The notes under the pieces: generated by a model
What the model was told of the DNA's origin: nothing
Seen by the model: the letters and a program-made list of their open reading frames with translations, nothing else
Database searches by the model: none
Translations under genes and position numbers: made by a program
Part shown: in pieces, positions 51,537-51,613 of the stretch
Position numbering within the stretch: the first letter of the stretch is position 1
How the letters are laid out: the number at the start of each line of letters is the position of its first letter
Source: Patescibacteria group bacterium
Lineage (GTDB): Bacteria; Patescibacteriota; UBA1384; XYA2-FULL-43-10; 1-14-0-10-43-13
Direction: 5' to 3'
DNA length: 64,000 nt
NCBI GenBank assembly: GCA_041674765.1
Contig: JBAYVE010000001.1
Coordinates: 262,177 to 326,176 of the forward strand

Positions 51537-51613
51537 CTTAGAACTTAGAACTTAGAACTTAGAACTTAGAACTTAGAACTTAGAACTTAGAACTTAGAAC
51601 TTAGAACTTAGAA
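51537..51613. repeat. Perfect heptanucleotide microsatellite (CTTAGAA)x11
   Basis: Eleven exact tandem copies read directly in the sequence. It abuts the stop codon of the 51621 DsbA gene and lies about 57 nt upstream of the 51480 start. Confidence 0.95.

Follow-up and report, generated by a model that had tools for sequence, protein, structure and literature searches.

A perfect 11-unit heptanucleotide array between a DsbA-like gene and a gene for a 99-aa protein in a Patescibacteria group bacterium: a likely microsatellite

Genes and repeat array at the locus

The minus strand of the analyzed window (the whole stretch of DNA under study, 64 kb in length) contains a gene encoding a DsbA-like thiol-disulfide oxidoreductase (gene position 51621..52298; Pfam Thioredoxin_4, 8.8e-22, and DSBA, 7.5e-17), a perfect heptanucleotide simple-sequence repeat (51536..51615) and a gene encoding a 99-aa protein (51181..51480; NCBI MFA7253236.1, WC107_01635). 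A cupin-domain gene (50830..51162, minus strand; Pfam Cupin_2, 1.2e-10) is located 18 nt downstream of the 99-aa gene; it has its own GGAG ribosome-binding site and is probably the last gene of a transcription unit shared with the 99-aa gene. The nearest homologues of the DsbA protein were just 50% identical to it, and those with a named source came from Patescibacteria MAGs. The window itself belongs to the MAG of an uncultured Patescibacteria (CPR) bacterium.

The Tandem Repeats Finder tool described the array as an 80-nt run with a period of 7 at positions 51536..51615 (11.4 copies, 100% matches, no indels, score 160), and it was by far the top-scoring of the 33 rows obtained for the window. 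The plus strand reads (CTTAGAA)x11 at positions 51537..51613, from where the periodicity extends by one base to the left and by two to the right, and the gene strand (minus) reads atgata(GTTCTAA)x11 gtctat. Most of the 140-bp spacer between dsbA and the 99-aa gene is taken up by the array. The TAG stop codon of dsbA (51621-51623) is separated by 5 nt from the periodic run, and 55 nt lie between the far end of the array and the ATG of the 99-aa gene (51480). The original prediction had described a perfect (CTTAGAA)x11 array between these two genes, right after the DsbA stop codon and about 57 nt upstream of the start at 51480, and it was accurate on all of these points.

A search of the 64-kb window for the two-unit 14-mer with no more than 2 mismatches gave 11 matches against 0.79 expected, and this number was reached by 0 of 100 dinucleotide-preserving shuffles. 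Ten matches are exact and lie within the array; the single match elsewhere in the window falls in coding sequence. Owing to the TAA in the heptamer on the gene strand and the TAG on the opposite strand, every reading frame through the array is closed in both directions, and therefore the array cannot be coding. Two features of long simple-sequence repeats were found: a head-to-tail unit of 1-11 nt repeated above chance length, and, for a unit with a length not divisible by 3, placement in non-coding DNA.

No terminator-like site was detected within positions 50700-52600, and the idea that the array is a terminator was rejected on this basis. No inverted partner of the array was found. The predicted RNA fold of the array with its flanks was no better than that of shuffled sequences (-26 vs -23.9 +/- 3.1 kcal/mol, z = -0.66). 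The Rfam search gave no family at the array, the only matches in the window being four tRNAs. Taken together, the missing inverted partner, the z-score and the Rfam result speak against an RNA element or hairpin at the array.

Several other features of the neighborhood were recorded. Genes of a non-homologous end joining (NHEJ) cluster occupy positions 47446-50833 and encode Ku, a LigD that combines phosphoesterase and ligase domains, and, in a gene of its own, a LigD primase-polymerase; an ABC transporter is located on the opposite side of the array neighborhood from the Ku/LigD genes. A second DsbA paralogue was found at positions 58145-62733, where it adjoins a copper-type P-type ATPase and a DsbD_2/HMA/cupredoxin protein. 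A related MAG shows this gene arrangement as well (L156:620-5672). Of the two paralogues, the DsbA beside the repeat is therefore the one that does not belong to this conserved cluster. Around positions 50800-54450, gene orientation is reversed and the GC skew switches its sign, with mostly plus-strand genes and positive skew to the left of this region, minus-strand genes and negative skew to the right, and a cumulative skew maximum near 54 kb. This switch could mark a replication terminus or merely reflect gene orientation. In addition, three tRNA-Met (CAT) genes lie within 8 kb (1169-1244, 8615-8691 and 8874-8950), the last two being approximately 180 nt apart.

Predicted promoter anatomy and the 99-aa protein

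A 55-nt spacer (51481..51535, minus strand) separates the array from the ATG of the 99-aa gene; it is A/T-rich and appears to contain a candidate core promoter of this gene. A UP-element-like A/T tract, ctatattttattttatgcc, adjoins the array. A TATAAT hexamer resembling a -10 element (51487..51492, minus strand) stands 6 nt before the ATG, and a Shine-Dalgarno sequence is missing. This TATAAT-N6-ATG stretch (51492..51478) is the sole good promoter element of the 99-aa gene, and it is located wholly downstream of the array. A promoter scan predicted a promoter with 11/12 matches for dsbA as well (TTGATA-16-TATAAT, 52305..52332, minus strand), again followed by 6 nt and an ATG at 52298. In a survey of 65 upstream regions of the window, the same layout was found at dsbA (52298-52332) and at the genes at 5939 (5920-5941) and 34663 (34661-34685), and a clear ribosome-binding site was found in 25 genes. 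From the recurrence of the TATAAT-N6-ATG layout without a Shine-Dalgarno sequence, we infer that several transcripts of this organism are leaderless and that the 99-aa gene is transcribed from a promoter of its own. Note that for dsbA this layout favors the ATG at 52298 (225 aa) as the start codon over the 220-aa call of the ENA/Logan records.

With this promoter for the 99-aa gene, the array would be located at about -57 to -136, just past the A/T-rich tract. It neither overlaps the predicted core promoter (-35 to -10) nor stands between an operator and the promoter. Because the predicted promoter is wholly downstream of the array, the array cannot alter the spacing between the -35 and -10 elements. 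Any allele with at least 4 units would present the same 28 bp to the promoter, whatever the copy number, and on its distal side the array faces only the 3' end of the dsbA reading frame. The original prediction had proposed that each unit changes the phasing of promoter elements by about 0.67 helical turns. This proposal does not agree with the predicted anatomy: with the core promoter wholly downstream and nothing but the dsbA coding end beyond the array, such phasing has nothing to act on. As no terminator was found and the promoter lies downstream of the array, the repeats would be transcribed, if at all, only through read-through from dsbA.

The 99-aa ORF is judged to be a real gene, with one distant full-length homologue. 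Among 5.8 billion clustered proteins, no match besides the protein itself was obtained. An exhaustive HMMER search of 1.84 billion representatives revealed one homologue (P0122, 102 aa, E 6.7e-15), which aligns with the 99-aa protein end to end and without gaps at 35% identity. The gene of this homologue has a normal ribosome-binding site and lies 39 nt from a contig end, so its upstream region cannot be read. Weak HMMER matches of the 99-aa protein to a YadA-like adhesin and a DUF11 protein appear spurious. No family match was found in Pfam, PADLOC (defence systems) or PHROG (phages). The AlphaFold2 model shows an alpha-beta-beta-beta-alpha arrangement with a mean pLDDT of 71, and the best fold matches in the PDB were weak (T7 Gp1.2, a dGTPase inhibitor, and dsRBD-like folds; E 0.08). 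Nothing in the Pfam, PADLOC, PHROG and fold searches ties the protein to surface or restriction-modification functions.

Copy number across assemblies and the unit in other genomes

An exact look-up of the 99-aa protein revealed the array locus in two further assemblies (ENA and Logan). The MEGAHIT contig from ENA (ERZ27247358, 365,533 nt) is 100.000% identical to the window sequence over 10.3 kb, but it contains 4 units instead of 11. Two Logan contigs (SRR6484325), which approach the array from opposite sides, end within it and include 28 and 30 nt of the periodic run. The presence of the array in the ENA contig and at the ends of the Logan contigs indicates that it is not an artefact of one assembly. 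A k of 29 is among the defaults of MEGAHIT, and Logan contigs are built with k = 31. An 80-nt run with a period of 7 becomes a 7-node loop in a de Bruijn graph, and a path that skips the loop yields the shortest run of k or more nt whose length leaves the same remainder as 80 on division by 7. With k between 25 and 31 this length is 31 nt, and the run in ERZ27247358 is exactly 31 nt long. The 4-unit contig therefore coincides exactly with the expected loop-skip product and need not mean length polymorphism. Real length variation at the array is possible; all that follows from the breaks in the Logan contigs is a true array of more than 31 nt, or a mixed one, in that sample.

The comparison with relatives was limited by their distance. 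The nearest homologues of DsbA are no more than 50% identical, and the two homologue loci that were inspected are non-syntenic and have no repeat. A search for the 30-nt flank pattern in JGI metagenome contigs gave no match.

In order to place the unit in a wider context, genomes were scanned (one genome per species) for the 22-mer (GTTCTAA)3G, and at least 120 stretches from many phyla were found. By simple arithmetic, a random 22-mer is expected about 0.07 times in 596 Gb. The stretches listed include those from Fibrobacter, Geobacter, Kangiella, Shewanella, Acidobacteriota, Planctomycetes, Bacteroidia, Paenibacillus and several Patescibacteria. Some genomes contain several (GTTCTAA)n loci, and copy numbers range from 3 to 17 among the matches listed. 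Many of the listed arrays are embedded in decayed copies of the unit or in unrelated heptamer arrays, forming mosaics. A count in viral contigs was made with four composition-matched control heptamers: the GTTCTAA unit formed 5 arrays, and the controls formed 12, 11, 8 and 2. Because the control heptamers are equally common there, heptamer arrays are common in general and the GTTCTAA unit is not special. The idea of a special motif, which the 120 or more stretches had prompted, was rejected on these counts.

The position of the arrays relative to genes was also analyzed. The stop codon of the upstream gene lies within 15 nt of 32/66 arrays reading GUUCUAA in the mRNA and of 12/60 arrays reading the complement (Fisher p 0.0013, Mann-Whitney p 0.0003), where the statistic is based on crude ORF calls at 120 listed genome loci and on genomes that are not mutually independent. 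The difference between orientations became weaker at stricter ORF thresholds, yet it persisted. The array of the window, which follows the dsbA stop codon after 5 nt and reads GUUCUAA in the sense orientation, matches the majority stop-adjacent pattern. Stop adjacency as such is partly expected, because a short spacer is free of constraint only just behind the stop codon; the bias toward the sense orientation itself hints at a non-random constraint or function.

Other period-7 sequences were noted in these searches. Heptamer arrays facing inverted copies over a short loop occur at four Fibrobacter loci, at two loci of Geobacter/Geobacteraceae, in a Nitrospinae MAG and in a Sungiibacteriota MAG (L082:7330-7570), and they have the potential to form long hairpins of 7-nt units. 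The Sungiibacteriota locus also contains an approximately 40-nt repeat with inverted heptamers inside. Within the window, imperfect A/T-rich period-7 repeats were found in three consecutive spacers (30563-30640, 31466-31505 and 32018-32108) between plus-strand ORFs at 29666-33112. The first pair of these, ATGAATT x4.4 and TTAATTC x3.6, is inverted and folds weakly better than shuffles (z = -1.61). An imperfect (AATTTCT)x4.4 repeat at 59407-59437 encodes 12 residues within the coding sequence of a heavy-metal P-type ATPase, where the gain or loss of one unit would shift the reading frame. When the array was left out, the lag-7 identity of intergenic DNA was 0.293 vs about 0.283 for the neighboring lags. 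This difference of about 2 standard errors does not suffice to postulate a 7-bp periodicity in the intergenic DNA of the genome.

Interpretation and comparison with known systems

The array is best read as a slippage-prone, mutationally unstable heptanucleotide microsatellite that is near-neutral, with at most a small graded effect on expression and no ON/OFF switching; we put the probability of this reading at roughly 0.6. The repeat and its location, the promoter-like layout, the lack of secondary structure and the ordinary nature of the unit are direct observations, from which we infer an origin by slippage, instability and neutrality. The array would have arisen, and would stay perfect, through slipped-strand mispairing during replication, and 11 perfect units argue for turnover faster than point mutation. 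The slippage would have taken place in the only signal-free part of the spacer, which extends from the dsbA stop codon to the A/T-rich promoter region of the next gene. Since the array lies upstream of the TATAAT-N6-ATG stretch, the gain or loss of units would leave the core promoter unaltered; it would bring the end of dsbA nearer or move it farther away, and would change the untranslated length of any read-through transcript of dsbA. The original prediction had regarded the array as prone to slipped-strand mispairing, and this part of it is supported. The array shows no imperfection, lies in non-coding DNA and belongs to a kind of repeat in which slippage is known, and the assemblies are inconsistent with one another (11 units, 4 units, broken); however, the 4-unit form is what the collapse of a de Bruijn graph produces. 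The further proposal of a contingency-locus switch is not borne out, as the predicted promoter anatomy is unfit for it and neither a family match nor a typical feature of contingency genes was seen for the 99-aa gene. Several points speak against near-neutrality. In a small and densely packed CPR genome, 11 identical units could be due to selection in addition to mutation, and the heptamers upstream of hmw1A and hmw2A in H. influenzae do regulate expression (PMC12721329). Stop adjacency in the sense orientation (32/66 vs 12/60), to which the array of the window conforms, points in the same direction.

A contingency locus or rheostat, in which a copy number set by slippage tunes the 99-aa gene (and the cupin gene) through the phase or distance of a site upstream of the promoter or through the length of a transcribed leader, is possible but doubtful. 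In favor of it are the perfection and length of the array and its place directly before a gene start, and there is a precedent for heptamers whose length is inversely related to expression (PMC12721329). An assembly that is otherwise 100% identical has 4 units instead of 11, and contigs built at k=31 stop at the array on both sides; however, the 4-unit form coincides exactly with the loop-skip path of a graph with k=25-31. The array is also outside the predicted core promoter, the promoter-adjacent 28 bp are constant at 4 or more units, and nothing but the dsbA coding end is present upstream. There is no hairpin of the hmw type at the array. The 99-aa gene, for its part, lacks Pfam, defence-system and phage family matches and any link to surface or restriction-modification functions, and all relatives are too distant for a comparison, the nearest DsbA being 50% identical and encoded at a non-syntenic locus. 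We consider it rather unlikely that the array is a functional cis-element, that is, a multi-site binding platform (on DNA or in the 3' untranslated RNA of dsbA), as proposed for the TAACTGA repeats of Beggiatoaceae, or a block of stop codons in all three frames directly after the gene. The occurrence of GTTCTAA arrays in many phyla, sometimes at several loci per genome, and the pairing of arrays with inverted copies in several Fibrobacter, Geobacter, Nitrospinae and Sungiibacteriota loci are consistent with such an element. The same can be said of the sense-orientation stop adjacency (32/66 vs 12/60), with the array 5 nt after the dsbA stop codon, although that statistic comes from crude ORF calls and non-independent genomes. 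Against it, control heptamers are equally frequent in viral contigs, the array of the window is the single one of its kind in 64 kb and has no inverted partner or structure, and no candidate for the binding protein was found.

Least probable by far is that the repeat or its length was made by an assembler. The assemblies do differ in copy number and short-k contigs do stop in the repeat, but the repeat has identical flanks in three independent assemblies, its 80 nt are shorter than a single 150-nt read, and assemblers collapse tandem repeats rather than invent them. There is a small chance that the array is more than a near-neutral repeat, being either a true rheostat of a lineage-specific small gene or a member of a functional cross-phylum class of GTTCTAA-type repeats. 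Repeats of this class would directly follow stop codons when in sense orientation, would be paired with inverted arrays into long hairpins in some lineages, and would work within the 3' untranslated region instead of being mutational debris. If the length varied and tuned the downstream genes, this would suggest that host-dependent CPR bacteria use a bet-hedging device of host-adapted pathogens. The cross-phylum stop adjacency, if confirmed with proper controls, would indicate that heptamer repeats, which dominate among the long repeats of prokaryotes, are under a constraint or have a function. For the array as a microsatellite, the chief practical effect would be broken or collapsed short-read assemblies at the locus.

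In the literature searched, no paper was found on tandem repeats or repeat-mediated phase variation in Patescibacteria, and the exact repeat sequence appeared in no paper. Among known systems, promoter repeats varied by slippage include the (TA)n tract between the -35 and -10 elements of H. influenzae hif and the TAAA tract upstream of Neisseria nadA. The array resembles them as a simple repeat near a (predicted) promoter. In contrast to them, it is outside the -35/-10 region, and no operator is visible or known beyond it, where a coding sequence ends. The cyanobacterial STRR heptamers are intergenic 7-nt tandem arrays with several unrelated units per genome and without a known function. The heptamer mosaics beside GTTCTAA arrays in other genomes are similar to these, whereas the taxon and the units differ and the window has only one long array.

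In H. influenzae, (ATCTTTC)n repeats are located upstream of hmw1A and hmw2A, and their copy number is inversely proportional to expression (PMC12721329). These repeats belong to the transcribed 5'-UTR, where they pair with a G-rich arm into a long hairpin, a target of cleavage by RNase III (PMC12721329). The array of the window shares with them the tandem arrangement of a 7-nt unit upstream of a gene. Unlike them, it has no complementary arm or stable fold, and the predicted promoter is downstream of it, so the repeats are probably outside the 5'-UTR. The TAACTGA direct repeats of marine Beggiatoaceae, Cyanobacteria and Bacteroidetes are intergenic, mostly in 2-6 copies and a few nt from a start codon, with 169 sets in one genome (MacGregor 2015, PMC4679880). 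Similar features are an intergenic tandem heptamer with stop codons and the occurrence of the unit in distant phyla with no obvious transfer mechanism. However, the unit of the window is GTTCTAA/CTTAGAA, whose best rotation shares 5/7 bases with TAACTGA, and the window contains one 11-copy array in its 64 kb, which adjoins a stop codon and is located 55 nt from the ATG.

The array falls into the class of the long simple-sequence repeats (LSSRs) of prokaryotes, consisting of perfect 7-nt copies arranged head to tail far above chance in non-coding DNA. Heptanucleotide repeats are the most abundant class of LSSRs in most prokaryotic genomes, and polymerase slippage is held responsible for them (Mrazek, Guo & Shah 2007, summarised in PMC4679880; PMC4692102).
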